Below, one piece after another: positions 1,899 to 43,236 of a stretch of 64,000 nucleotides of DNA. A model generated the notes under the pieces. It did not search any database and was not told where the DNA came from. It was given only the letters and a program-made list of their open reading frames with translations. The DNA is taken from sequence record OV876907, one strand, 5' to 3'. Numbering within the stretch: the first letter of the stretch is position 1; each line of letters starts with the position of its first letter. This DNA comes from Escherichia phage UGJNEcP3. The position numbers and the translations under genes are program-made.

Positions 1899-3709
1899 TG
1901 AAACAAGACTTAAAAGTAGGTTCCGCTGTTGATGACGGGTCCGGTGATTACCTGCGTGCAGGTGGTCTTAAAATTAATAACAACTTCAATGAGCTTTATT
2001 ACCAATTAGGCGACGGCAATAACCCACATGCCGCAGGCGCTTGGAAACAACATTCTACTGAAGACGGTGCTTTGTTGAATGCCGTAATGGGCCATAGCTA
2101 TACCCTTAATACCCAGGGTGGGCGTATTAACGTCCAGCTTCCTAAAGGCTCTCCTGAAGAATATAACTTTGTTATCCGTGTACGTGATGTGTATTCTTCA
2201 TGGCAAGCTAACCCAGTAACCTTAATCCCTGCCACAGGTGATACCATTAAGGGTTCAGCTACTCAAGTTGAAATTGCTCGCAACTTCTCTGACCTTGAAT
2301 TGGTTTATTGTGCGCCTGGTCGTTGGGAATATGTTGAAAATAAGCAAGTAAACCGTATTCCAAATAACGACCTTGCTACCGTAGCAACCAAGCAGTTTAT
2401 TGCTACTGAAGGTCAAACAGATTTTCTAGATGTTTTCCCTGGCCTTTCTTACAACGTAGCAAGTTTAAGCGTTTCGCAACGTGGTAACAATTTGTTCTAC
2501 GGTGTTGATGATATTTTTGATGCTGCTACCGCAGAGTTTGGTTCTCCGGGTGCTCAACCAGGTGAATTGGTTGCCTTGAATGGTAAGGACATCCGTTTAA
2601 AATATCCATGCGAAGCAGGTGATACCGTTATTATCAAATCGTATAATGACGGACTTGCTCAATGGCGCAGTTCTTATAACCGCCGTGATATAACAATCAA
2701 AAGTTCAGAATTGACTAAAGACGTTTCTGTTCCTGGTTCTTCTTTCGTAGGTGATTTGAGTACTTCACATGTTATATCAGCGGCTGATTTGAATATTTCC
2801 GTTAACAGTCCTATCAACCCAAATGCTTGCCAAGTCATGCTTAATAGCACATTACTTCATCAAGCTGGTACTGCTGGCCTTCCTTCGTTTTATTGTGAAG
2901 GTGCCGACGGACGTACTGCTACCGAGTGTTTTAATGCAGGCGGGCAATGGACTCAATCTAAATCAGACTATATTTTTAATTTGACCCCTGAAGATAAGAT
3001 TGAATCCATCGAATTTGGACGTGACTTTGAACATGGTGATATTCTTACGGTAATTTGGTACAATAACGATATCGGCACTACCATGGAAATTGATGAGATT
3101 TTGGATTATACCAATAACATCTATATTTCTAAAGGCCCTTCTATTGATATATCAGGCCAGGTTCGTATCACTGATGTAGATAATCCTTTTGCACCTAACG
3201 TTGAACCTGTCGCCCCATCTAATATTACAATAGATACGGCATCGACATTTTTTGATTTAATTTACCCTATAGGAACCATCTATGAGAACACGGTGAATCC
3301 TAATAACCCTAAAACTTATATGGGCTTTGGTTCATGGAAGCGTTTATCTGATGTGTTCTTGGTAGGTTGGTCTCCTGACGCTAGTTCTTTGTTTAATGCA
3401 AATAATAACGACCTGGATTCAGCGGGTGTTCCACAATCAACTGCAGGTGGGACTGGTGGTGCTCATGTGGCTAATTTGAAATATGAGAATATCCCAGAAC
3501 TTAATACAGATGATAAAGTCCTTATTGCTGATAATGATGGCCCTATTTTTGTAGGTGGATGTTTAGTTGACCCTGATTCGCAAGGACCGGCTTATACAAA
3601 ATATCGTGAAGATAAAGCCAGTATTAATAAGGCTCAAGGGACCACTCCCATCCCGGTTAATACTCTACCACCATACTTAACTGTTCATCGCTGGATGAGG
3701 ATTGCATAA
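1898..3709 (+). CDS. 10: baseplate wedge subunit and tail pin gp10
   Basis: ORF track; ATG overlaps gp9 stop (TAATG); size and position as T4 gene 10. Confidence 0.85.
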   Translation: MKQDLKVGSAVDDGSGDYLRAGGLKINNNFNELYYQLGDGNNPHAAGAWKQHSTEDGALLNAVMGHSYTLNTQGGRINVQLPKGSPEEYNFVIRVRDVYSSWQANPVTLIPATGDTIKGSATQVEIARNFSDLELVYCAPGRWEYVENKQVNRIPNNDLATVATKQFIATEGQTDFLDVFPGLSYNVASLSVSQRGNNLFYGVDDIFDAATAEFGSPGAQPGELVALNGKDIRLKYPCEAGDTVIIKSYNDGLAQWRSSYNRRDITIKSSELTKDVSVPGSSFVGDLSTSHVISAADLNISVNSPINPNACQVMLNSTLLHQAGTAGLPSFYCEGADGRTATECFNAGGQWTQSKSDYIFNLTPEDKIESIEFGRDFEHGDILTVIWYNNDIGTTMEIDEILDYTNNIYISKGPSIDISGQVRITDVDNPFAPNVEPVAPSNITIDTASTFFDLIYPIGTIYENTVNPNNPKTYMGFGSWKRLSDVFLVGWSPDASSLFNANNNDLDSAGVPQSTAGGTGGAHVANLKYENIPELNTDDKVLIADNDGPIFVGGCLVDPDSQGPAYTKYREDKASINKAQGTTPIPVNTLPPYLTVHRWMRIA

Positions 3710-14556: not shown

Positions 14557-15177
14557 GTGATTATTACTAAATTTGTTGATGTAAAAATAAATACTAACAA
14601 TTACAGTTATTTCTTAGACTTAGGGTATGAGTTGGAACCTCTAGGAGCACCGAAGCATGGGCATAAGTGCCAAACTATTCGAGCAAAAGTTTCTGATTTA
14701 AAGGATGGTTCTAATAAAGAAGTTCAATGTATCTGCGATAAATGTGGCACAGAATTCAAACAAAGGATTGCTAGAAATACCGATGTATGTTATCCTTGTA
14801 GGCGTCATGAAGCTCTTATAGGTAACACCCACGGTAAAGCTAATAAAGGTAAAACTCTACCTCATATGCAAGGTGAAAACCATCCAAGATGGAACCCTAA
14901 TAAATCTGAATACTTTGCTTATGCAGCAAAGGTCAGAGCTGTTACTTATGCTTGTAAAGACGAGTGGATGGCTTGGGAAAATGCCGATAAAATAGGGCTA
15001 TGTGGAGTTGAAGGTGCTTACCAATTAGACCATAAGGTTTCAGTAGCTTATGGGTTCTATAACCATATCCCGGCAGAGATAATTGGACAATTATCAAATT
15101 TAGAAATAATCACTTGGGAATCCAATAGAGCTAAAAGTAAGTCTAGTTCAATAGACTTATGGGACTTACTATCCTAA
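14557..15177 (+). CDS. free-standing HNH endonuclease (putative homing endonuclease)
   Basis: Zn-ribbon CxxC...CxxC then HNH-like LDHKVS...NL...NRAK; no T4 gene at this position; GTG 14557 follows AAGGA; ATG 14521 lies inside a hairpin so start is uncertain. Confidence 0.65.
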   Translation: MIITKFVDVKINTNNYSYFLDLGYELEPLGAPKHGHKCQTIRAKVSDLKDGSNKEVQCICDKCGTEFKQRIARNTDVCYPCRRHEALIGNTHGKANKGKTLPHMQGENHPRWNPNKSEYFAYAAKVRAVTYACKDEWMAWENADKIGLCGVEGAYQLDHKVSVAYGFYNHIPAEIIGQLSNLEIITWESNRAKSKSSSIDLWDLLS

Positions 15178-21268: not shown

Positions 21269-21286
21269 GGGAGACCGAAGTCTCCC
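21269..21286. terminator. terminator between gene 23 and the convergent minus-strand gene
   Basis: GGGAGAC-CGAA-GTCTCCC followed by T-rich ATTCTTGTTTCT. Confidence 0.6.
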
Positions 21287-25277: not shown

Positions 25278-25949
25278 TTATTTTAAAGTGACAAAAGATG
25301 AGTTACGAGTTTCTCGTACTAGAACAGACCCATTACGATTGATGTAATAAATCAAACTGAATAGAGTTTGGTGCGCAGTGGGATGTGGGAAAGCAGTTGG
25401 ACGTTCTTTCCAATCTGGAGTCTCGGCAATCCACTGATAAATCCACCAAGGAACGGTGCAATAACCTGGGTTCTTACCGATAAGCAAAAGATTAGGACTG
25501 AAGTTTTCAGATAAAGAGAATACAGGTTTTTCAGATTCGATAACCTTGGTTACAGCCTCTTTGAATTTCTCTTCGTCAAATGGAACATCCTCTTCAATAA
25601 TCTCTACCTTAGGAAGTTCGGCTACCTCTATTACTTCAACAACTGCCTCAGGGGCATCGAACAACAGGGTTGCTTCTTCTTTAGCTGGTTCTACACCTTC
25701 GATAAAATCGTTATCACCGGTGAGTTCGTCAGCAGCATCAATCAAATCAGAAATAGACAAACCTTCAGTTTCTGGGAGTGGTTCGTCAGCCAAGGCTTTA
25801 AGGCCCTCAGAGATATCGATAATCAAATTATCAAACGAACGGGTTTTCTTAAGTTTTAAACCGAACTGTTCGCCGTATTCGATTAACTTAGCTTTAGCTT
25901 CTTTTTTATCTTCGAGTGCACGAAGCTCTTCAATATATTGAGTATCCAT
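25278..25949 (-). CDS. inh: prohead protease inhibitor Inh
   Basis: ORF track; acidic protein at the T4 inh position between hoc and uvsW; minus-strand TATAAATA upstream. Confidence 0.7.
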   Translation of the reverse strand: MDTQYIEELRALEDKKEAKAKLIEYGEQFGLKLKKTRSFDNLIIDISEGLKALADEPLPETEGLSISDLIDAADELTGDNDFIEGVEPAKEEATLLFDAPEAVVEVIEVAELPKVEIIEEDVPFDEEKFKEAVTKVIESEKPVFSLSENFSPNLLLIGKNPGYCTVPWWIYQWIAETPDWKERPTAFPHPTAHQTLFSLIYYINRNGSVLVRETRNSSFVTLK

Positions 25950-25968
25950 AATTAGTCTCTTGTTGGTG

Positions 25969-25990
25969 TATAAATATAACTATATTTATA
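25969..25990. promoter_or_regulatory. divergent late promoters: TATAAATA for uvsW (plus) and for inh (minus)
   Basis: TATAAATA at 25969-25976 (plus) and its reverse complement at 25983-25990, each about 30 nt from its ATG. Confidence 0.55.
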
Positions 25991-26004
25991 ACTGAGAATT
26001 ACTT

Positions 26005-27501
26005 ATGCAAATTCAAGTACATTTTGATAATTTTAGTCATGTCCGTATTGAATGCGATGAATCCACATTCTACGAACTCAGAGACTATTTTAGCTTTGAA
26101 GCTGATGGATATAAATTCAACCCTAAATTTCGTTATGGGCAATGGGATGGACGTATTCGTCTTCTAGATTATAATCGTAAACTTCCTTATGGATTGGTTC
26201 CTCAAATTAAAAAGTTCGCTGAACAATTTGAATACTCTCTGTGGATTGACCCACGTATTCTTGAACAGGAAGATATTTCTCGTGAGGATTTTGACTCATG
26301 GGTGGCTTCTCAAGAAATTTATTCAGGGTCTACCAAGATTGAGCCTCATTGGTATCAGAATGAAGCCGTATACAACGGCCTGACAAAACGTCGTGCAATT
26401 CTGAATTTGCCTACATCCGCAGGTAAATCATTGATTCAGGCACTCCTAAGTCGATATTACGTTGAGAACTACGAAGGTAAAATCCTTATATTAGTTCCTA
26501 CTACTGCACTTGTCGACCAGATGATTAATGACTTCATCGATTATCGATTGTTCCCTAAAGCAGCAATGCTTGGTATTCGTTCAGGTACTGCTCGTGATTC
26601 GGATGCAATGATTTATGTTTCAACCTACCAAACGGCAATTAAACAACCTAAAGAATGGTTTGCTCAGTTCGGTATGTTTATGAACGACGAATGCCATTTG
26701 GCTACAGGTAAATCTATTTCTACTATCATCGAAGGCCTAACCAACTGTATGTTTAAATTCGGTTTGTCTGGTTCTTTAAAAGATGGTAAAGCTAATTTAA
26801 TGCAATATATGGGTTTGTTTGGTGATGTGTTTAAGCCAGTATCCACCTCCCAGTTAATGGAAGAAGGACAGGTTACTGACCTTAAAATCAACAGTATCTT
26901 CCTTCGATACCCAGACGAATTCACGGTTAAGATGAAAGGTAAAGATTACCAATCAGAAATAAAGGTCATTACTAAGGCTACTCGCCGTAATAAATGGGTT
27001 GCTAATTTAGCTGTTAAACTCGCTAAGAAAGAAGAGAACGTATTCCTGATGTTTAAAAACATCGAGCACGGTAAAACTCTTTTTGAAATGGTTAAAGAGC
27101 AACATAAAGAAGTTTATTACGTATCAGGTGAAGTTAATACCGAAACGCGTAATGCTCTGAAAGTAATGGCGGAAAATGGTAAGGGTATTATTGTTGTGGC
27201 AAGTTATGGTGTGTTCTCTACTGGTATTTCCGTTAAGAACCTTCACCACGTTGTATTTGCTCACGGCGTAAAATCTAAAATCATTGTTCTGCAAACAATT
27301 GGGCGTGTACTCCGTAAGCATGACAGCAAACAGGTGGCCCAAGTCTGGGACCTCGTGGATGATATGGGAGTCCGCCCTAAATCTAAAGATTCTAAAAAGA
27401 AATATGTTCATTTAAATTATTGTCTGAAACACGGATTGGAACGTATTCAACGGTACGCAGACGAGAAATTTAATTATGTCATGAAAGAGGTACAGCTTTG
27501 A
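26005..27501 (+). CDS. uvsW: UvsW DNA/RNA helicase
   Basis: ORF track; helicase motifs PTSAGKS and DECH; TATAAATA at 25969-25976. Confidence 0.9.
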   Translation: MQIQVHFDNFSHVRIECDESTFYELRDYFSFEADGYKFNPKFRYGQWDGRIRLLDYNRKLPYGLVPQIKKFAEQFEYSLWIDPRILEQEDISREDFDSWVASQEIYSGSTKIEPHWYQNEAVYNGLTKRRAILNLPTSAGKSLIQALLSRYYVENYEGKILILVPTTALVDQMINDFIDYRLFPKAAMLGIRSGTARDSDAMIYVSTYQTAIKQPKEWFAQFGMFMNDECHLATGKSISTIIEGLTNCMFKFGLSGSLKDGKANLMQYMGLFGDVFKPVSTSQLMEEGQVTDLKINSIFLRYPDEFTVKMKGKDYQSEIKVITKATRRNKWVANLAVKLAKKEENVFLMFKNIEHGKTLFEMVKEQHKEVYYVSGEVNTETRNALKVMAENGKGIIVVASYGVFSTGISVKNLHHVVFAHGVKSKIIVLQTIGRVLRKHDSKQVAQVWDLVDDMGVRPKSKDSKKKYVHLNYCLKHGLERIQRYADEKFNYVMKEVQL

Positions 27502-28280
27502 ATTATCAGAAAATTTACGATGATTTAATAGAGAATGCTAGGTCCAGAGGATGGACCAAAGCTACTGCACCCTGTAAAATCGAAATTCATCATATTATTC
27601 CTAAGTCGATAGGTGGTTCCGATGACCCTAACAATTTAGTTGCATTGACTATTAGGGAACATATTTTGGGTCATATAATCTTGGCTAAAGCTCAAGGTGG
27701 AAAATTATGGCGTGCTGCATTTGGTATGACATGCGGTAAAAGATTAAATGAGATAAGCTCTAGGTCTATTTCCATTTTAAAAGAAAATGCTTCTAGATTA
27801 ATAAGCGAAGCCATGATTGGTAATACAAACGGCTCTTATGAATGGACCGATGAACGGAGAGAAATACACCGAAAAGCTATGGCTAAAGTTGGATTAACAG
27901 AAGCCAAATTAAAAGCTTTAGAAAAGGCTTGGACCAAAAATAAAGGTTCCAAGCAATCCAAAGAGACCATAGCCAAAAGGTCCAAAGCAATGAAAGGATT
28001 TACCCCTGTTAAAGCCGGAGATTATGAAACGTGTTCAAAAGCTGGCAAAGCCAATAAAGGTGTAAAGAAATCATTTAGGACTGAGGACCATTCTAAAAAT
28101 TGGCAAGCTACTTTGGCTAAGAAATATCCACACTGGTTAATGTACGATGAGCTTAAAGAGCTTTGGATAAATACAGGAAAGCTTAAAGTTGGTAAATTTA
28201 CAAAAGAAGCCATTAAAGCTGGTTATCCTAATGTGCATTACGGTAAAATGGTTACCAAATTTTTCGAGGAAATATTATGA
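27498..28280 (+). CDS. free-standing HNH endonuclease (putative homing endonuclease) inserted between uvsW and uvsW.1
   Basis: Classic HNH motif EIHHIIPKSIGGSDDPNNLVALTIREH; no in-frame ATG near 5' end, so TTG 27498 after GAGG is the likely start, overlapping uvsW stop. Confidence 0.7.
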   Translation: MNYQKIYDDLIENARSRGWTKATAPCKIEIHHIIPKSIGGSDDPNNLVALTIREHILGHIILAKAQGGKLWRAAFGMTCGKRLNEISSRSISILKENASRLISEAMIGNTNGSYEWTDERREIHRKAMAKVGLTEAKLKALEKAWTKNKGSKQSKETIAKRSKAMKGFTPVKAGDYETCSKAGKANKGVKKSFRTEDHSKNWQATLAKKYPHWLMYDELKELWINTGKLKVGKFTKEAIKAGYPNVHYGKMVTKFFEEIL

Positions 28281-28504
28281 AAACCTTTAAAGAAGTTATT
28301 CAAGAAGCATCTATTGAAAGCTTCATGGCTAAAATTGGTTCTTGTCAGACTATGGATGGTCTGAAGGAATTGGAAAAGTATTACAAAACTCGTAGTAAGG
28401 AAGCTGAACTTCGTGATTCGGACGATATTAGCGTGCGTGATGCATTGGCTGGTAAGAGAGCTGAATTGGAGTCGATGGACGACGAGGAAGAGGAAGATTT
28501 CTAA
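28277..28504 (+). CDS. uvsW.1: UvsW.1 small acidic protein
   Basis: ORF track; 75 aa with acidic DDEEEEDF tail; ATGA overlap with upstream stop. Confidence 0.75.
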   Translation: MKTFKEVIQEASIESFMAKIGSCQTMDGLKELEKYYKTRSKEAELRDSDDISVRDALAGKRAELESMDDEEEEDF

Positions 28505-28505
28505 A

Positions 28506-28534
28506 CAAAAAAGGCCCAACCTTTCGGAAGGGCC
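28506..28534 (-). terminator. terminator at the end of the uvsY-side minus-strand unit
   Basis: Minus-strand GC stem with internal loop followed by TTTTTTG; lies between uvsW.1 stop and the small minus-strand ORF. Confidence 0.5.
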
Positions 28535-28563
28535 AATAACCATAAATGGCTATACACACTAGA

Positions 28564-28731
28564 CTAAAGTAGTAATTGGGTTTCGTTCAGCTGTTCTTCA
28601 GTGTTTTCCGTAACCGGCAAGCTTTGAACGTAATTATAACATGAGCCCGGATGAACCGGACCTTTTTCTGTTTCAACAACCAATGCAGCATCGATTGGAG
28701 TTTTACAGACAACACAAATCTTATCTGACAT
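28564..28731 (-). CDS. small CxxC protein (about 55 aa), hypothetical
   Basis: Below ORF-track cutoff; hand translation MSDKICVVCKTPIDAALVVETEKGPVHPGSCYNY...; AAGGAG RBS 6 nt upstream; terminator follows; coordinates approximate. Confidence 0.45.
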   Translation of the reverse strand: MSDKICVVCKTPIDAALVVETEKGPVHPGSCYNYVQSLPVTENTEEQLNETQLLL

Positions 28732-28759: not shown

Positions 28760-28864
28760 CTATTTATTACTTGCTAAAGCGGCATTAATGAATTCTTGGA
28801 GTTTGTCCATCCGATCTTTAGATGGTTTAGGGCATTTATTGATGACTGGTTTACGATAACTCAT
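28760..28864 (-). CDS. very small ORF (about 34 aa), hypothetical
   Basis: Hand translation MSYRKPVINKCPKPSKDRMDKLQEFINAALASNK; ATG overlaps uvsY stop (ATGA), AGGTGA RBS; coordinates approximate. Confidence 0.3.
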   Translation of the reverse strand: MSYRKPVINKCPKPSKDRMDKLQEFINAALASNK

Positions 28865-36943: not shown

Positions 36944-36973
36944 ATAGTACCACATCCTTGTGGTGTTGTAAAC
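36944..36973 (-). promoter_or_regulatory. early-type promoter GTTTACA-N17-TACTAT
   Basis: Upstream of the 36625-36915 gene; -35 overlaps the Alt-A stop codon. Confidence 0.5.
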
Positions 36974-39096
36974 TACATTTTGAATTTATTTGATAAAGAA
37001 GAGATATCCAAAGACGCGGCAAGGATTTCCATAGCTTCATTGCTTTCAGAAATGGATTCACTAATCAAGAACTGACTGAATCCATCCATCAGGCGAACTT
37101 CGCCAGTTTCCATCAAATGGTCACCATCGTAAACAGATTCGCTGAGCTCTGAAGGAGGTGTTACGGTAGCTTCCATAAGGTATTTGTGAGATACTCTATC
37201 ATTCATGGCAAAAGACGCTACTTTATCAACCTTCAACAATAATCCACGCGGAAGGATAATTTCTGCTTCTTCAGCATATTCTGTAAGGTCGCCAGGAGCG
37301 ATAACTTTAACTGCTTCAGCACCTCGAATAACCATACCAATTTCAGCAATTCTATCCGCAGGGCCTTCAGGTGCAATTGGATTACCAAACTCGTCTTCTT
37401 CCCATTCCACCTCTTCGTCATCGACTTCACCCACATCAGATGAACTACCACTAGCCAATTTAAACAACTCATCGGCTGAGGATAAAGAACCTTCATCACC
37501 AACAAAAACTGCTTGGTTGTCGAGGGCCATATAATTTTTACCAAATTCGCCAAAGATGTTAGGCTTTAATGAGGCCGACACAAAGTTCTTAAAGTAAAAT
37601 GTTTTGTTATCGATATTATGACGCAGAATTTTGTATGGTAAATCCTGACCACGATACAAAATAGTACCCTTAGGAAGTTTAATACCCTTAGTAAATGCTG
37701 AGTCTAAATCCTTAATCAATTTAATAGCCGTTGTATTGTTTTCGGATTCAGGTTTACCTAAAAGGAATAAGTTCATAGGAGCATATTCAGCTGCGCAATA
37801 TTCAATAATAGCATTGCTTTCGTCTTTGGTTAAGTCCTTAGGTTTAATGAGCTCACCTGAATAAGCATATGCATCACTAATAGAATCGTTAATTAGTTTA
37901 TAAACGGCTTCCATAGCGAAAGCAATTCGAGAGGCCTTTTCTGAAGGGGAGCCTTTAAAACGAGCGCTCAAGTTATTAACAATTTTCTTAATAATATCCA
38001 GACTATTGGTGGTATTGATTTGCGAAAGGCCACTTAAAAGTCTATCGACTTCTGTATTAAAAAATGCCATATTATTAGAGTAAATTTCAAACCCTTGTTT
38101 ATCTCTATTAGCATAATTTAGTTTAAATTTACTATCAGTCATTAAAGCGTGTGTGAGAGCAATAGTGTATCTAAAGTTGGCAAGGTCCTCGCTCTTAGAT
38201 TTAAACTGAGAAGCCTGGCGCATTTTGGTAATAGCACCTTTTTTAAAGTTCTGACTAATCTGTTCAATACCTTCATTCTCAGGGCCTTCAGCCGTGTGAA
38301 CCGGTACAGAAGCTTCAAACTCGTTATAAACCTGCAATTCTTTAGGGGACAAAGTTTCAGGCTCAGCAGTAGAATACTGCGCGGCCGCTGCCATACGACG
38401 CGAAATCTTAGTACGAGTAATGACAGCCTTATCAGTACGTTTCTCTTCAACTTGTGCAATAGATGCCGCTACGGCTTCTACTTTACTTACGGCCTGGCCG
38501 GTTTTCTTAGAAACATACACTTCGCCAACTTTAGACTCGACTTTAGTATAAAGATTGGCATCAATTTCAGGCATACCCTTGATATCTTCAATATTAGCAC
38601 CACGACGTACTAAAAGAACGTAGGTATGTTTTCCGCTGAATTGGAACATGTGGTCAACAACTTTAAACTTACCACCGGTACGGGCCATAGCCAAACGAGC
38701 TAATACGCGCTGAACGGTAGGGCCTTTACCTTTCATTTTCTTAGTAGGGAAACGGAATAAAACCGCGTCCATTTTAAGTTTGTTTATTTGTTCATATATG
38801 GTATCGAAAATGGTGTTCAGTGTACCGAGTGGATCGGTACCCAAACCACCCTTGAGTTCTGCCGGAGCGCCTTTAGCAGATAAACTCATTAAGATAACAT
38901 GGACGTACTTATCGCCATTTTTAACCATCTTAATAGCGTCGCCTTCAGACGCATAAGATACCATACGCGCTACTAAATTGTCATTACCAGGAGCATGTAC
39001 CGCAAAAATCTGCGGTACGCCTGAGCCAGGTTTAAGATTTGTTACCGGATAGTTTTTAGCGGAATCGCTATCAAAAACTTCGTTTAAATTTTCCAT
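36973..39096 (-). CDS. alt: Alt-like ADP-ribosyltransferase, paralogue A (third in transcription order)
   Basis: N-terminus MENLNEVFDSD...; ART motifs YRGQ / VSASL / EIILPRG in the C-terminal third; central segment unlike the other two copies. Confidence 0.8.
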   Translation of the reverse strand: MENLNEVFDSDSAKNYPVTNLKPGSGVPQIFAVHAPGNDNLVARMVSYASEGDAIKMVKNGDKYVHVILMSLSAKGAPAELKGGLGTDPLGTLNTIFDTIYEQINKLKMDAVLFRFPTKKMKGKGPTVQRVLARLAMARTGGKFKVVDHMFQFSGKHTYVLLVRRGANIEDIKGMPEIDANLYTKVESKVGEVYVSKKTGQAVSKVEAVAASIAQVEEKRTDKAVITRTKISRRMAAAAQYSTAEPETLSPKELQVYNEFEASVPVHTAEGPENEGIEQISQNFKKGAITKMRQASQFKSKSEDLANFRYTIALTHALMTDSKFKLNYANRDKQGFEIYSNNMAFFNTEVDRLLSGLSQINTTNSLDIIKKIVNNLSARFKGSPSEKASRIAFAMEAVYKLINDSISDAYAYSGELIKPKDLTKDESNAIIEYCAAEYAPMNLFLLGKPESENNTTAIKLIKDLDSAFTKGIKLPKGTILYRGQDLPYKILRHNIDNKTFYFKNFVSASLKPNIFGEFGKNYMALDNQAVFVGDEGSLSSADELFKLASGSSSDVGEVDDEEVEWEEDEFGNPIAPEGPADRIAEIGMVIRGAEAVKVIAPGDLTEYAEEAEIILPRGLLLKVDKVASFAMNDRVSHKYLMEATVTPPSELSESVYDGDHLMETGEVRLMDGFSQFLISESISESNEAMEILAASLDISSLSNKFKM

Positions 39097-39099
39097 TAT

Positions 39100-41148
39100 T
39101 TACCCTTGGGTGAATTTTTCTGGGGTTTCGTCAAAATTAATACATGAAGCTAAAATAGGCATTATATCCACCTTGGTCGATTTGACGAATGAATCAAAAG
39201 ACACACGGTTGTCGGTCTCTGTTTCTACGCCTTGGTAAACAACCAATTCGCCGGTTTCCATCAATGCATCACCATCATAGATAACCGCATTTTCTGCTAG
39301 TTGGTCTGTGGTCTGGATATCAGCTTCCAATAATTTGGTGTTGTAGTTTCCTTTATATGAGGCATCTGTAATTTTAGTAATCTTAACAGTAGTTCCACGT
39401 GGAAGAATAACCTCTTGTTCTGTTGGAGAACCTGACAATTCACCGGGCACAATTACGTTAATAGAGTCTGCACCGGAAATTTTCCAACCGATGTTCATCA
39501 TTGTATTTTCGGAACTCGTCAGCATACTTGGAAGAACAATTTCATTATTGCCTTGGAAAGATGTCCCAGCGCGATAGTCCTGATGAACTGCGGCCATTGC
39601 GACGTTTGATACCCAGCCGCCAAAGATAATCGGCTTAAGGGACGTTGATACATAGTTCCTGAAATAAAACAATTTTGAGTGTTTGATTTTATCAAAAGTG
39701 TTAACATTTAAATATTGACCACGCCAAAGTGTAATATCAGGTGGCAATTTATGGCCAATTTCAAATGCCGCATCCATATCATTAATTACTTCAATTACAC
39801 GATAACTATCAATAAATTCTGCATCCTCTTCATAATAATTACCCAACAAATAATTATTAACATCGGTATAATATTGGCCACAATAAGAAGAAATAGCCTC
39901 ACGCTGCCCATACTCAAATCGATTATCGCTATAACTGGCTGTAAAATGCATAACACTTTCTGACGCTTCATTAGCAAAGTCGGTAACAGCAGCACTTATA
40001 CGTTGAGCATACTCTTGTTCCCAAAGCTCTGCTGCATATTCTGCCGCATCCATATTAGGAGGAGCCTCATTCATTTTTCTTTCGATAAATGCAGCTTTGC
40101 GAAGGTTAAGAACCTCTGCACATGATTCGGCAAAAATCTGCATCTGCTTCATACTGCCGACAGGAGCACGTTTAAGTTCACGATGCATACGGTTAAAAAT
40201 TGGGTCAGAGTCTTCGACTCGAATTTCTTCTTTCCAAACACCGTTTGCTCGCATAGCCATATCTGCCGCGCGCATACGCTCCATAGTATTCGTTTCAGAA
40301 GGCTGAATAAAAATTTCCAGTTCTTCATAATCATCGATAAGTTCTGCTGTTGCTGGGGCACTAAATTTTGATGCCTCTGCATCAATCTCATTCCAACCTT
40401 CCGGAACTTCATCTCGAGGAGAATACTGGGCTGCGGCTACAGCACGCCTAGAAATCTTGGTAGTAGTAATAACGGCCTTATCCGTACGTTTTTCTTCGAC
40501 TGCCGCTATACTAGCAGATAGTGCTTCTATTTTGGTTACCGATTGGCCTGTTTTCTTGGATACATAAACCTCACCAACTTTAGACTCAACCTTAGTGTAA
40601 AGGTCTGCATCAATTTCAGGCATACCTTTTATGTCCTCAATATTAGCTTGTTTACGGACCAGTAAAACGTATGTATGTTTGCCTGTAAATTGATACATAT
40701 CATCGACAACTTTAAACTTGCCGCCAGTACGAGCCATCGCCAAACGTGCCAATACACGTTGAACAGTAGGACCCTTACCTTTCATTTTCTTGGTAGGGAA
40801 CCGGAAAAGAACTGCATCCATTTTAAGTTTGTTTACTTGTTCGTATACAGTATCAAAAATGGTATTCAGCGTACCAAGTGGGTCAGAACCTAACCCACCT
40901 TTCAACTCGGCTGGGCTACCCTTAGCAGACAAACTCATCAAAATAACATGAACATATTTGTCACCCGGCTTAACCATTTTAATAGCGTCTCCTTGAGACG
41001 CATAAGATACCATACGAGCAACCAGATTATCATTACCTGGTGCTTGGATAGAGAAAATCTGTGGAATACCGGGACCCGGTTTAAGATTTGTTACTGGATA
41101 GTTTTTAGCGGAATCACTATCAAAAACCTCATTTAAATTTTCCATCAT
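39100..41148 (-). CDS. alt: Alt-like ADP-ribosyltransferase, paralogue B
   Basis: N-terminal about 230 aa near-identical to paralogue A; motifs WRGQ / VSTSL / EVILPRG; start may be the second ATG (41145). Confidence 0.8.
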   Translation of the reverse strand: MMENLNEVFDSDSAKNYPVTNLKPGPGIPQIFSIQAPGNDNLVARMVSYASQGDAIKMVKPGDKYVHVILMSLSAKGSPAELKGGLGSDPLGTLNTIFDTVYEQVNKLKMDAVLFRFPTKKMKGKGPTVQRVLARLAMARTGGKFKVVDDMYQFTGKHTYVLLVRKQANIEDIKGMPEIDADLYTKVESKVGEVYVSKKTGQSVTKIEALSASIAAVEEKRTDKAVITTTKISRRAVAAAQYSPRDEVPEGWNEIDAEASKFSAPATAELIDDYEELEIFIQPSETNTMERMRAADMAMRANGVWKEEIRVEDSDPIFNRMHRELKRAPVGSMKQMQIFAESCAEVLNLRKAAFIERKMNEAPPNMDAAEYAAELWEQEYAQRISAAVTDFANEASESVMHFTASYSDNRFEYGQREAISSYCGQYYTDVNNYLLGNYYEEDAEFIDSYRVIEVINDMDAAFEIGHKLPPDITLWRGQYLNVNTFDKIKHSKLFYFRNYVSTSLKPIIFGGWVSNVAMAAVHQDYRAGTSFQGNNEIVLPSMLTSSENTMMNIGWKISGADSINVIVPGELSGSPTEQEVILPRGTTVKITKITDASYKGNYNTKLLEADIQTTDQLAENAVIYDGDALMETGELVVYQGVETETDNRVSFDSFVKSTKVDIMPILASCINFDETPEKFTQG

Positions 41149-43236
41149 TTACCCTTGGATGAATTTTTCTGGGATGCCATAGAGGTCTATGCATGAAGCC
41201 AAAAGAGACAGTACATCAACCCGTGTAGATTTAACAAATGAATCAAAAGATACAGGGCTTTCGGAAGTATCGAAATCATCTTGATATACGACCAACTCAC
41301 CGGTTTCCATTAGTACGTCACCATCATATACCACAGATTCTTGAAGCTCATCTGATGTCATAACTTCAGCTTGAATAAATTTATTGTTAGACACCGTCCC
41401 GGAACCAGTATTGGCTGATGCATCCACGATTTTATCTATTTTTACAAGTAGCCCGCGTGGTAAAATTATTTCCTTTTCGTTGGCATGCATGCTTAATTGG
41501 CCAGGATAAATCACGTTAACCTTATGAGCGCCACTAATAGCCCAGCCAACATCAACACGGATTTGATCCGGCGCATACATATGTGTACGCACTTGACTAT
41601 CAGAGATGGTAACGCCTTCGTCATTATTATCAATGTTTAATTCTTTTCGAACATCATCGGAAGCAAGACCAATAGCCGCATTCTCTTTAAAGCCACCAAA
41701 AATGATTGGAGCTAATGAGGTTGAAACATAGTTTCTAAAATAGAATACCTTATTTTTAACTAATGCTTCGTAGATAGGCGCGCGCAAAGATTGTGCTCTA
41801 TAAACCATTATTCCTTCAGGTAAACGGTCTCCATTTTTAAAGGCAGAATCCATTCCATCAATAGCACGTTTAACTTCGCTTTCGTCCAAAACTTCATAAA
41901 AGCCTGGTTTATAACGACCAAGAAGGACATTGTTAATATCAATATAAGCTGAAGAGGCGTATTCTCTGATAGCTCGTTTTTCTGCAAGTGTATATTGTTT
42001 AGGGTCTCGAGATGTTGTTATATTAAGAATTTCTCTAGTTGATTCTATAGCGTATGTATACATTATCTTAGACAAGAATGAAGACTTACGTTGTTTCCAT
42101 ACTATTTCACTGTTTTCATTCAATATCTCTTTTTCCAAATGGAAATTGTCTTTTCTATAATCTTCAAACCAATCACTTTTAATAGATTCTGCGATTTCAT
42201 TAGCAACTTCAACAAAGGCAGCTAAAGCTTTAACTGACGTGGTTTTTTCATTTTTAATTTTTTTGACAAATGTTTCTAAAGAAGAGTTAATTTTATCACC
42301 GTAAGAAACTTCATCCGCAAATTTAAATGAATCATCCATAGTATTATAAATTTTAAAATCAATAGCCGTAGCCAACTTATCCTTAGCTGTTTCAGATGAT
42401 AACGATAGTTCAACTTCGGCCGCTTGTGGAATTAATTCTGCCGTAGCAGGCGCACTGAACTCACTAGCAGTTTGCTCGTATTTCTGAAACAATTCACCTT
42501 CATTACGATCTGATTCTAATGACTGGCTTGCTGCAATAGCACGTCGCGAAATCTTAGTCTTGGTTATAACCATTTTATCGGTGCGACGTTCTTCAACCTT
42601 AGCAATACTGCCGGCAATAGCAGTTTCTTTAGTAACCTGCAGGCCTTCTTTTTTAGAAATATAAACTTCACCAACATCAGAATCTACCTTAGTGTATAAT
42701 TCGGAATTAATTCCTGGCATACCCTTAATATCTTCAATGTTAGCTTGTTTACGAACTACTAGGATGTAAGTATGTTTACCGGTAAATTGGTACATAGCCG
42801 GAACTACTTTAAAACGTCCACCTGTTTTCTGTGCTACCAAACGTTGGATAATCCGTTGAACAATAGGCCCTTGACCTTTCATTTTCTTAGTAGGGAAACG
42901 GAACATCACTGCATCCATACGAAGCTTTTTAACTTGGTCATAAACCACATCAAAAATAGTATTAATCGCATCTACGGGAGTAGGGCCAAGGCCACCCTTA
43001 AGTTCGGCTGGAGTACCTTTAGCTGAAAGGCTCATAAGGATAACGTGGGCATATTTATCGCCTAATTTAACTTGTTTAATAGCATCACCTTCAGAAGCGT
43101 AGGATACCATACGCGCTACTAATTGGGATTCTGCATCGCCAATCTTCCAAATCTGAGGTACTTTAAGTTTTGGGTTCAAGTTTACTGTAGGCAGAGTGCC
43201 TTCGGACTCAAACACTTCATTTAATTGTTCGGTCAT
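41149..43236 (-). CDS. alt: Alt-like ADP-ribosyltransferase, paralogue C (first in transcription order)
   Basis: N-terminus MTEQLNEVFESE...; motifs YRAQ / VSTSL / EIILPRG; C-terminal tail shared with paralogue B; AAGAGGAA RBS. Confidence 0.8.
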   Translation of the reverse strand: MTEQLNEVFESEGTLPTVNLNPKLKVPQIWKIGDAESQLVARMVSYASEGDAIKQVKLGDKYAHVILMSLSAKGTPAELKGGLGPTPVDAINTIFDVVYDQVKKLRMDAVMFRFPTKKMKGQGPIVQRIIQRLVAQKTGGRFKVVPAMYQFTGKHTYILVVRKQANIEDIKGMPGINSELYTKVDSDVGEVYISKKEGLQVTKETAIAGSIAKVEERRTDKMVITKTKISRRAIAASQSLESDRNEGELFQKYEQTASEFSAPATAELIPQAAEVELSLSSETAKDKLATAIDFKIYNTMDDSFKFADEVSYGDKINSSLETFVKKIKNEKTTSVKALAAFVEVANEIAESIKSDWFEDYRKDNFHLEKEILNENSEIVWKQRKSSFLSKIMYTYAIESTREILNITTSRDPKQYTLAEKRAIREYASSAYIDINNVLLGRYKPGFYEVLDESEVKRAIDGMDSAFKNGDRLPEGIMVYRAQSLRAPIYEALVKNKVFYFRNYVSTSLAPIIFGGFKENAAIGLASDDVRKELNIDNNDEGVTISDSQVRTHMYAPDQIRVDVGWAISGAHKVNVIYPGQLSMHANEKEIILPRGLLVKIDKIVDASANTGSGTVSNNKFIQAEVMTSDELQESVVYDGDVLMETGELVVYQDDFDTSESPVSFDSFVKSTRVDVLSLLASCIDLYGIPEKFIQG

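Follow-up and report, generated by a model that had tools for sequence, protein, structure and literature searches.

A predicted Mob-type HNH homing endonuclease gene with a putative TTG start at the uvsW/uvsW.1 junction of Escherichia phage UGJNEcP3

Analysis of a 64,000-nucleotide window of Escherichia phage UGJNEcP3 (OV876907), the window being the whole stretch of DNA studied here, indicates that the 260 amino acid protein specified between uvsW and uvsW.1 is very probably a free-standing homing endonuclease of the T4 'Mob' type, composed of an HNH domain and a NUMOD-type tail, with predicted nuclease activity. The gene has been inserted at a pre-existing coupling junction, which it duplicates, and is co-inherited with approximately 233 nt of the uvsW 3' end as an imported flank with a fixed boundary. 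The gene itself is already annotated in GenBank with a TTG start, and what is added here is one more member of the Mob type. The sequence of Escherichia phage UGJNEcP4 (OV877765.1), a Dhakavirus, is identical to the window, and there the gene, at the same coordinates and with the TTG start, is an annotated CDS ('homing endonuclease'). The features of the region are as follows.

25969..25976 (+), predicted late promoter box of the T4 type (TATAAATA), lying 29 nt 5' of the uvsW ATG
26005..27501 (+), uvsW helicase gene, 498 aa, domains UvsW_N, ResIII and Helicase_C
27265..27497 (+), diverged uvsW 3' tract linked to the HNH gene, ~233 nt, beginning at the Gly codon GGC
27487..27490 (+), Shine-Dalgarno GAGG (context AAAGAGGT), 7 nt 5' of the TTG and within the final uvsW codons
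27498..27501 (+), TTGA junction, at which the HNH-gene TTG (27498-27500) overlaps the uvsW stop TGA (27499-27501)
27498..28280 (+), HNH endonuclease gene, 260 aa, free-standing and Mob-like (GenBank CAH1616791.1)
27582..27662 (+), HNH catalytic motif EIHHIIPKSIGGSDDPNNLVALTIREH, residues 29-55
27945..27998 (+), weak predicted NUMOD3-like DNA-binding motif, residues 150-167 (E=0.22)
28266..28269 (+), GAGG Shine-Dalgarno for uvsW.1, within the last HNH-gene codons, 7 nt 5' of the ATG
28277..28280 (+), ATGA junction, at which the uvsW.1 ATG (28277-28279) overlaps the HNH-gene stop TGA (28278-28280)
28277..28504 (+), uvsW.1, 75 aa (PF11637)
28513..28534 (no strand assigned), GC hairpin with an interruption (GGCCC...GGGCC), situated between uvsW.1 and uvsY.-2, which converge

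The sequence-only reading of this DNA had described a 260-residue ORF between uvsW and uvsW.1, beginning with a TTG that lies 7 nt after GAGG and overlaps the uvsW stop, and ending in a stop that overlaps the uvsW.1 ATG; all of these placements were borne out. The first T of the TTG is the wobble base of the final uvsW codon (CTT, Leu). An open frame of 260 codons is not a product of chance, since its probability is ~5e-8 per position and only ~0.007 would be expected in the whole window.

The identification of the product as an HNH endonuclease, likewise proposed from the letters alone, was upheld by profile searches. Residues 28-50 match the Pfam HNH family (PF01844; score 26.8 bits, cut-off 21.4, E=5.9e-6), as do 23 of 24 homologues, and the protein matches PHROG 655, 'homing endonuclease' (E=2e-47). 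In an alignment of 7 sequences and another of 24, conservation of H31, H32, N46, H55 and H59 is complete or reaches at least 90%, and products of genes annotated as mobE align along 98% of the length at 33-34% identity (E=7e-24). Examined for the beta-beta-alpha fold of the HNH (beta-beta-alpha-metal) superfamily, the AlphaFold model (pLDDT 77.5 overall, >90 for residues 1-70) contains strands at residues 28-32 and 47-51 followed by a helix at 52-66, all with pLDDT >90. A Foldseek search of the PDB yielded no significant structural homolog of the whole protein, the top matches being HNH domains (E ~0.6, probability 0.8-0.9). NUMOD3 is matched in 13 of the 24 family members, and the tails found in the family comprise NUMOD3, I-HmuI NUMOD-like and I-TevI DNA-binding types. 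The best-conserved C-terminal segment is an invariant stretch at residues 167-191 (GF.PVKAGD..CSKAGKANKG.KK), of which 168-191 is disordered in the model. Matches from a scan of IMG/VR were mostly distant N-terminal HNH relatives rather than orthologs at uvsW, and were left out of the later comparisons. An intron-encoded gene of the I-HmuI or I-TevIII type was ruled out, as positions 25900-28700 gave no Rfam match at E<=1, group I models included. The adjoining uvsW ends with its own stop codon and its C-terminus is conserved.

Orthologs (45-82% identity) always adjoin the uvsW 3' end and occur in at least six genera: Dhakavirus, Gaprivervirus, Karamvirus, Hadassahvirus, Schizotequatrovirus and Angelvirus. 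Of the several dozen records listed for Dhakavirus, two phages carry the gene, as do two in Gaprivervirus and four in Karamvirus; empty junctions with an intact ATGA overlap are present in JS98, PSD9, IME281 and IME341, and close relatives that lack the gene and have an intact site also occur in Gaprivervirus, Karamvirus and Hadassahvirus. The gene appears to be dispensable, since it is patchy within every genus examined. The suggestion that it splits uvsW from uvsW.1 holds in that it lies between them, but the two are already separate, ATGA-overlapping ORFs in relatives without it, in agreement with their description as separate ORFs in T4-like phages (PMC1524935). It is this arrangement of the empty sites that argues for insertion at a pre-existing coupling junction. 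The ATGA between the HNH gene and uvsW.1 is a copy of the uvsW/uvsW.1 junction of the gene-less relatives, a purine-rich motif at the position of the uvsW.1 Shine-Dalgarno is kept in all orthologs that have uvsW.1 next downstream, and in some relatives the final codons of uvsW serve again as the 3' end of the insert itself.

From position 27265 to the TTG, uvsW is 26% diverged from gene-less Dhakavirus genomes, compared with 3% further upstream; the tract covers the DNA for helicase motif VI (VLQTIGRVLRKH) and a new uvsW C-terminus (...MKEVQL*), and starts at a codon which is Gly (GGC) in the carrier and Pro (CCA) in the gene-less relatives. With 2 mismatches to those genomes in 228 nt, uvsW.1 lies outside the imported block. 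The same Pro/Gly boundary recurs in four independent genus-level pairs from two subfamilies (Dhakavirus, Gaprivervirus, Karamvirus and Hadassahvirus): uvsW is 0.5-3.2% diverged 5' of this codon and 21-29% diverged from it to the endonuclease start (233-248 nt), and the downstream flank shows 1-2 mismatches in 220 nt in the three of the four pairs measured. In a search for its donor, none of the alleles sampled exceeded 76% identity to the imported tract, with the exception of that of Bp7 (95%). The Pro-to-Gly codon 5' of the motif VI DNA is the best candidate for a cut or immunity site, and the fixed boundary yields a precise and cheap target-site hypothesis. The boundary could instead reflect linkage or selection; T4, which has no gene at the uvsW/uvsW.1 junction, nevertheless has Gly at the marker codon, so that Gly there does not single out carriers. 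Within motif VI, the Gln codon (CAG to CAA) showed a perfect association with carriers in the sample, an association that is not significant considering how many columns there are and how closely the sequences are related. Single synonymous 'immunity' positions of this sort were set aside as a lead only, T4 having the 'carrier' states as well. The pair PhT2 and PhT2-v2 was also considered as a view of the site before and after homing and rejected, the preprint treating v2 as an isolated phage and reporting no Appelmans-type evolution or recombination; it is used here as a natural comparison only.

A nuclease so closely tied to uvsW might have been domesticated, serving the phage in recombination-dependent replication with UvsW and UvsW.1 or in the exclusion of competitors. 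It would be transcribed, and may also be translated, together with recombination genes, it is under strong purifying selection, its lineage is tied to uvsW across two subfamilies, and marker exclusion by the Seg and Mob enzymes of T4 is known (PMC2988022). A domesticated gene would not, however, be expected to be as patchy as this one or to be replaceable by an HNH gene with an unrelated tail (see below), and an imported flank is what homing leaves behind. Domestication is therefore considered unlikely, and a mobile Mob-type endonuclease remains the preferred reading.

The claim that TTG 27498 is the only plausible start also stood up to comparison. No codon able to start translation lies between it and the closest in-frame stop on its 5' side (TAA, 27471), and the canonical in-frame starts that follow (TTG50, TTG57 and ATG77) are all within or past the HNH motif, leaving this TTG as the sole canonical start that preserves the motif. 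It aligns codon-for-codon with the ATG (Met1) of the orthologs in P479, YenM_P8, AbTZA1, PVA23, AsFcp_2 and several metagenomic alleles; every ortholog begins MNY... at this position, with M1, N2, Y3, Y7 and R17 invariant in the alignment. Alleles with a TTG start are, from their substitution patterns, under strong purifying selection. Comparison with Bp7 (16 nt and 2 aa differences) gave a dN/dS of 0.035 and that between EnC07 and P0006, both starting with TTG, a value of 0.10; a metagenomic TTG allele differs at 68 nt and 10 aa, and the range for all TTG alleles compared was 0.035-0.10 at up to 8.7% nucleotide divergence. Together with the GAGG at -7 and the loss of the HNH motif from any later start, the Met1 alignment and this selection make the TTG a well supported start codon. 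Intact ORFs starting with TTG or GTG recur in at least four lineages and in two endonuclease families, and such starts lead to mis-annotation in some public records; in that of SP18 the ORF has been cut back to an internal ATG, which would remove the HNH motif. The junction offers a natural series of ATG, TTG and GTG starts in an otherwise similar context, usable for the study of termination-reinitiation coupling in T4-like phages.

These data bear directly on whether the change from ATG to TTG was inactivating, the ORF being a silent, untranslated relic. Decay of this kind has precedents: homing endonuclease genes are known to degenerate once fixed, in Maestro, Morttis and AB-Navy71, all of them Acinetobacter phages, the ortholog is broken into two ORFs, and the close orthologs of P0002 (82%) and P479 (76%) start with ATG. 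The low dN/dS among TTG alleles that have diverged this far, the intact 260-codon frame, the strong GAGG at an optimal distance from the TTG and the recurrence of TTG and GTG ahead of intact ORFs in both families all speak against it, and a pseudogene is regarded as very improbable. A UvsW-HNH fusion through a programmed -1 frameshift just 5' of the uvsW stop, for which the overlap and -1 relation of the two frames and an SD-like GAGG that could in principle stimulate frameshifting might be cited, is more improbable still and can be dismissed: between the TAA and the TTG the HNH frame offers just 8 sense codons (27474-27497), this interval contains no X XXY YYZ slippery heptamer, the corresponding codon of orthologs is ATG, conservation of the N-terminus sets in precisely at codon 1, and in PVA23 a 4-nt gap lies between uvsW and the gene, while in P0007 the two overlap by a single base.

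Transcription of the region was examined through its signals. Exact matches to TATAAATA number 16 against 6.1 expected. The box at 25969 is the only one 5' of uvsW, the HNH gene and uvsW.1, which suggests that the HNH gene is without a promoter of its own and is transcribed late together with its two neighbors; uvsW is a late gene in T4. A separate late or sigma-70-type promoter for the HNH gene was rejected, there being no further box between 25990 and 30388 and promoter-like matches being at background level. A simple scan for canonical + strand terminators after uvsW.1 found none and did not pick up the hairpin at 28513..28534; this hairpin is nevertheless the likely transcript end, and it lies at the uvsW.1/uvsY.-2 position, where T4-like phages have a conserved bidirectional terminator (PMC1524935). 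Sequestration of the ribosome binding site in a hairpin, as in I-TevI and Aeh1 mobE, was rejected: the predicted hairpin that includes the UUG is a weak one (over 63 nt, -8.6 kcal/mol and z=-0.76), present only in the closest relatives, and RNAalifold gave no consensus structure across 10 junctions. Translational coupling and low expression of the HNH gene, as the sequence-only reading had proposed, are plausible; the same argument has been made for T4 mobE (PMC2988022), on the ground that its start overlaps the upstream stop.

The following course of events is envisaged. The uvsW-HNH-uvsW.1 message would be transcribed late from the box at 25969, and translation of the HNH gene would begin at UUG 27498, either by binding at the GAGG or by re-initiation of ribosomes terminating uvsW at the overlapping UGA. 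The second GAGG and the ATGA overlap at the 3' end would then pass ribosomes on to uvsW.1, so that the host junction would be rebuilt on both sides of the insert. During co-infection the enzyme may nick or cut uvsW of a gene-less relative, repair from the carrier genome then copying the HNH gene into the cut phage; the inherited unit would be the gene plus ~233 nt of the uvsW 3' end, with the Pro-to-Gly codon as its left edge. Nuclease activity, target position and mobility are here deduced from comparative data; searches of the literature brought up no experiments on site-specific cleavage or super-Mendelian inheritance for this lineage. The boundary at one uvsW codon (CCA to GGN, 27265-27267) would put the cut or immunity site at a distance of ~233 bp from the gene. 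At this junction the start codon has changed its first base among A, T and G on at least four occasions across the two endonuclease families, a pattern that would point to selection for attenuated translation coupled to termination, and not to accident. With the coupling junction between uvsW and uvsW.1 restored by the element on each of its sides, expression of uvsW.1 would, if this is true, depend on translation through a selfish gene. That the comparative footprint alone maps the biology of this Mob lineage, with a distant cut site, selected start-base switching and a uvsW.1 dependent on the element, is put forward tentatively, as a real possibility that falls somewhat short of probable.

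Among characterized systems the nearest is T4 MobE, which is of the same family and has an MNYxKIY... N-terminus followed by the HNH motif. T4 mobE, situated between nrdA and nrdB, is promoterless and relies on transcription from upstream; its start and the stop of the gene before it overlap (UAAUGA), and its product nicks, at a distance, the neighboring conserved gene of phages lacking mobE, the gene being inherited with flanking DNA (PMC2790892, PMC2988022). The UGJNEcP3 gene differs in its location at the uvsW 3' end, its TTG rather than ATG start, its 4-nt overlap (TTGA) and its C-terminal DNA-binding region, and no internal + strand terminator like that of mobE was found in it. In T4, SegE is specified between inh and uvsW and has uvsW as its target (PMC2988022). 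It thus shares uvsW as home and, probably, as target with the HNH gene, but is a GIY-YIG enzyme located at the 5' side of uvsW; segE is absent from the window, where inh and uvsW are adjacent. For T4-type homing endonucleases uvsW is a landing pad used repeatedly, its 3' end joining the 5' end already known as the SegE site. SegG of T4, encoded in the 32/59 interval, has gene 32 as its target (PMC2988022), and distant cutting as by it and other enzymes, in which the block between cut site and gene is co-converted, would fit the fixed 233-nt tract; SegG is, however, a GIY-YIG enzyme, and the cut site of the HNH gene is deduced from comparative boundaries. Host coding sequence lies on both sides of Aeh1 mobE in nrdA and of T4 mobA in gene 39/60 (PMC2988022), and the HNH gene is similarly embedded, except that those elements split a single gene and uvsW and uvsW.1 are already separate in all relatives.

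The second endonuclease gene at this junction specifies a 231 amino acid NUMOD3-type HNH protein with an unrelated tail and is found in PSD2002, UP19, SP18, ACG-C40, PM2 and Klebsiella phages. It occupies the same site with an NTGA overlap of the uvsW stop, often starts with TTG or GTG and is likewise preceded by a diverged uvsW 3' tract. Its product shares the N-terminus (MNYQKIYD; 55% identity over 65 aa) with the 260-residue protein, but the C-terminal two-thirds, with NUMOD3 repeats (TIGR01453-like), are unrelated, the tract boundaries vary (about -225 and -168) and the marker codon stays Pro. The catalog of T4-family homing endonucleases thereby gains a Mob-type lineage of wide occurrence together with a second that competes with it for this position, an addition of modest importance. 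The copy of the 231-residue gene in ACG-C40 is annotated 'MobE'.

Between uvsW and uvsW.1 lies one long ORF, as the sequence-only reading had claimed; an open frame of this length has a chance expectation of about 0.007 in the whole window. The features of the region are:

25969-25976, T4-type late-promoter box TATAAATA, exact match, 29 nt upstream of uvsW
26005-27501, uvsW, the left neighbour, with UvsW_N, ResIII/DEAD and Helicase_C domains
27498-28280 (+), endonuclease gene, 260 codons, the sole long ORF in the interval
28277-28504, uvsW.1, the right neighbour (PF11637)
28513-28534, GC hairpin, placed where T4-like phages have a conserved bidirectional terminator downstream of uvsW.1 (PMC1524935)

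The frame is closed upstream by a TAA at 27471, and the first start-capable codon thereafter is TTG 27498, lying 7 nt after GAGG (27487-27490) and overlapping the uvsW stop as TTGA (27498-27501). At the other end the TGA of the ORF overlaps the uvsW.1 ATG as ATGA (28277-28280). The HNH motif quoted in the earlier reading occupies residues 29-55, and there is indeed no ATG near the 5' end: the canonical in-frame starts that follow, TTG50, TTG57 and ATG77, would each remove the motif partly or wholly.

The gene encodes a Mob-type HNH homing endonuclease, a sort well known from T4-like phages. Its product matches Pfam HNH above the gathering score and PHROG 655 "homing endonuclease" (E=2e-47), and shows 33–34% identity over 98% of its length to MobE-annotated genes of T4-like phages. 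Among 24 homologues, HNH was matched in 23 and NUMOD3 in 13, with I-HmuI NUMOD-like or I-TevI DNA-binding domains in a few; in the window's protein the NUMOD3-like stretch (residues 150-167) is weak. The AlphaFold model (mean pLDDT 77.5) is confident at residues 1-100 (helix, two strands, helix) and 200-260 (helical), and not confident in the invariant basic stretch 168-191. Foldseek gave no significant match in the PDB, the best non-significant hits being HNH domains. Since Rfam matched no family over 25900-28700, the gene is free-standing, with no group I intron. No experimental study of this endonuclease lineage was found in the literature searched.

Comparison of the junction with relatives showed that the gene is absent from JS98, PSD9, IME281 and IME341, which read ...GATTTATGA... 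with the uvsW stop overlapping the uvsW.1 start. Two separate ORFs are the conserved state among T4-like phages (PMC1524935). The observation and interpretation of the sequence-only reading stand, except that nothing has been "split": relatives without the gene already possess two overlapping ORFs. The insert, with TTGA preceded by GAGG on its left and ATGA preceded by GAGG (28266-28269) on its right, recreates this overlap on both sides. The endonuclease ORF of several relatives finishes on codons that once formed the end of the recipient's uvsW; 23 of 27 nt at the 3' end of the P479 gene match the end of RZ uvsW, and a 231-aa protein of PSD2002 ends ...MKQVDL*, as does the uvsW protein of phages lacking the gene. 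The new uvsW end (...MKEVQL*) arrives with the element. In T4 and ACG-C40 a spacer of ~25 nt separates the uvsW stop from the uvsW.1 start, with no ATGA overlap.

The Dhakaviruses PSD2002, UP19 and ESCO10 carry a different gene, of 231 aa, at exactly the same position. The two proteins have only their first 65 aa in common (55% identity), the remainder of the shorter one being unrelated and NUMOD3-type. Members of this second lineage are likewise found at the 3' end of uvsW in Gaprivervirus SP18, Tequatrovirus ACG-C40 (where the annotation is "MobE"), Klebsiella phages, Proteus PM2 and others. That two endonuclease lineages compete for one junction is of interest and cheaply testable. Domestication of the endonuclease for a phage function is unlikely, given its patchy distribution and its replaceability by another endonuclease.

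Orthologues from GenBank phages and metagenomic contigs were used to examine the proposed TTG start. Every one reads MNY[QKE].. from the codon that aligns to the TTG, and M1, N2, Y3, Y7 and R17 are invariant.

Start codons in the two endonuclease lineages (UGJNEcP4 represents the window's allele)
Orthologues of the window's gene, ATG: P0002 (82% identical); P479 and YenM_P8 (about 76%); P0005, P0007, P0009, AbTZA1, PVA23, AsFcp_2
Orthologues of the window's gene, TTG: UGJNEcP4; Bp7; Karamvirus group (EnC07, P0006); a metagenomic allele, 96% identical, on 20 contigs
231-aa lineage, TTG: PSD2002, UP19, SP18, ACG-C40
231-aa lineage, GTG: PM2
231-aa lineage, ATG: a Klebsiella phage

Between TTG alleles dN/dS is 0.035 (UGJNEcP4 and Bp7) and 0.10 (EnC07 and P0006), and UGJNEcP4 differs from the metagenomic allele at 68 nt and only 10 aa. 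The TTG alleles have diverged under strong purifying selection, so the ORF is kept as a protein, with TTG as its start. These ratios, and the repeated occurrence of TTG ahead of intact frames, contradict a dead relic. A UvsW-HNH fusion made by frameshifting, the counter-case named in the sequence-only reading, is also contradicted: there is no slippery site, the HNH frame is open for only 8 codons upstream, and orthologue junctions exist with a gap or a single-base overlap.

All overlapping uvsW/endonuclease junctions read NTGA, where N is the wobble base in the final uvsW codon, for Leu or Ile; no CTG occurred among the junctions compared. The identity relationships call for two or more start-codon switches per lineage, and this recurrent change among ATG, TTG and GTG at a wobble-coupled start is likewise of interest and cheaply testable. 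In T4 itself mobA alone is predicted to start with a non-ATG codon (PMC2988022). Among the 58 genes annotated within the window's first 50 kb there are 56 ATG starts, one GTG and one TTG, the endonuclease. The GTG gene (14557-15177 (+)), flanked by the genes for the tail sheath and the tail tube, encodes a 206-aa "hypothetical protein" with no Pfam match, and could conceivably be a further mobile-element gene.

No second exact late-promoter box exists between that upstream of uvsW and 30388, sigma-70-like promoter hits were at background level only, and no plus-strand terminator was found inside the endonuclease gene. Since the late box stands alone and no internal signal intervenes, the gene is most likely transcribed as part of the uvsW late transcript. 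Like T4 mobE, it lacks a promoter of its own and its start overlaps the upstream stop; for mobE, translational coupling and limited expression were argued from this arrangement (PMC2790892, PMC2988022). A search for a hairpin sequestering the start region gave nothing significant or conserved. Elsewhere, 36973-43236 (-) holds three consecutive ~2.1 kb genes, each carrying the annotation Alt-like RNA polymerase ADP-ribosyltransferase and together forming a tandem paralogue array.

Compared with Dhakaviruses without the gene, the window's uvsW is 3.2% diverged up to 27264 and 26% diverged over the 233 nt from 27265 to the TTG; uvsW.1 shows 2 mismatches in 228 nt. Four natural pairs of phages with and without the gene were compared, the downstream 220 nt in the Dhakavirus, Gaprivervirus and Hadassahvirus pairs.

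Divergence in carrier/non-carrier pairs (uvsW upstream of the marker codon; marker to endonuclease start; downstream 220 nt)
UGJNEcP4/PSD9 (Dhakavirus): 3.2%; 26.2%; 2 mismatches
P479/RZ (Gaprivervirus): 1.3%; 21.0%; 1 mismatch
EnC07/Ent31 (Karamvirus): 1.4%; 27.0%
PhT2-v2/PhT2 (Hadassahvirus): 0.5%; 29.0%; 1 mismatch

In 4/4 pairs the switch falls at the same uvsW codon (the marker, 27265-27267), which is Pro (CCA) without the gene and Gly (GGN) in carriers, within AH[P/G]VKSK directly 5' of the DNA coding for helicase motif VI. T4, with no gene at this junction, likewise has Gly. Because tracts of different genera are only ~70–75% identical to one another, separate histories have converged on one boundary. 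In the simplest reading the minimal co-travelling unit would run from this boundary through the endonuclease gene, spanning the interval from a putative cut or recognition site to the gene, with the carrier's version immune. We infer that the boundary may be such a cut/recognition or immunity site; the fixed co-inherited tract, pointing to a target near motif VI, is also cheaply testable and of interest.

Another endonuclease-like ORF (~230 aa) lies between uvsY.-2 and uvsY in the Dhakavirus relatives IME281 (L014, local coordinates 2582-3271 (-)) and L111 (3061-3759 (-)), where the window (28760-28864) has only a 34-aa ORF. T4 carries segE upstream of uvsW (L119, 558-1175), so that the inh-uvsW-uvsY region is a cluster of mobile endonuclease insertion sites. 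The orthologue in Acinetobacter phage Maestro (L008, 1201-1901) is broken into two ORFs, as are those of Morttis and AB-Navy71, judged by split annotation among the matches listed; these exemplify the decay phase of the same lineage.

The gene region is identical to OV877765.1 (Escherichia phage UGJNEcP4, Straboviridae, Dhakavirus), in which 114599..115381, corresponding to window 27498-28280 with the TTG start, is already labelled "homing endonuclease". Only four bases differ over the first 50 kb, all at 21276-21279, directly following the gene for the major head protein, where a GC-rich hairpin has its 4-nt loop reverse-complemented (window GGGAGAC-CGAA-GTCTCCC, OV877765.1 GGGAGAC-TTCG-GTCTCCC). 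The Bp7 protein, annotated "H-N-H family", is 98.8% identical. A non-ATG start does mislead annotators, since for the SP18 gene (L107, NC_014595, 401-1096) the RefSeq CDS begins at an internal ATG (497), deleting the HNH motif, with the TTG at 401 aligned to the family N-terminus. For the gene of Vibrio phage PVA23 (L009, 1501-2298) the annotated CDS, begun at 1729 with the aligned ATG at 1501, is also truncated and loses the motif. In Bp7 (L002, NC_019500, 599-2102) uvsW is annotated in two pieces (599-811 and 1122-2102) and an ungapped comparison of its first 200 nt with the window gives mismatches at 65–75% of positions, so that it has either an indel or a 5' segment that was replaced; the gene may be disrupted. 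The T4 RefSeq (L119, NC_000866, 1178-2941) still carries the old fused 587-aa uvsW annotation.
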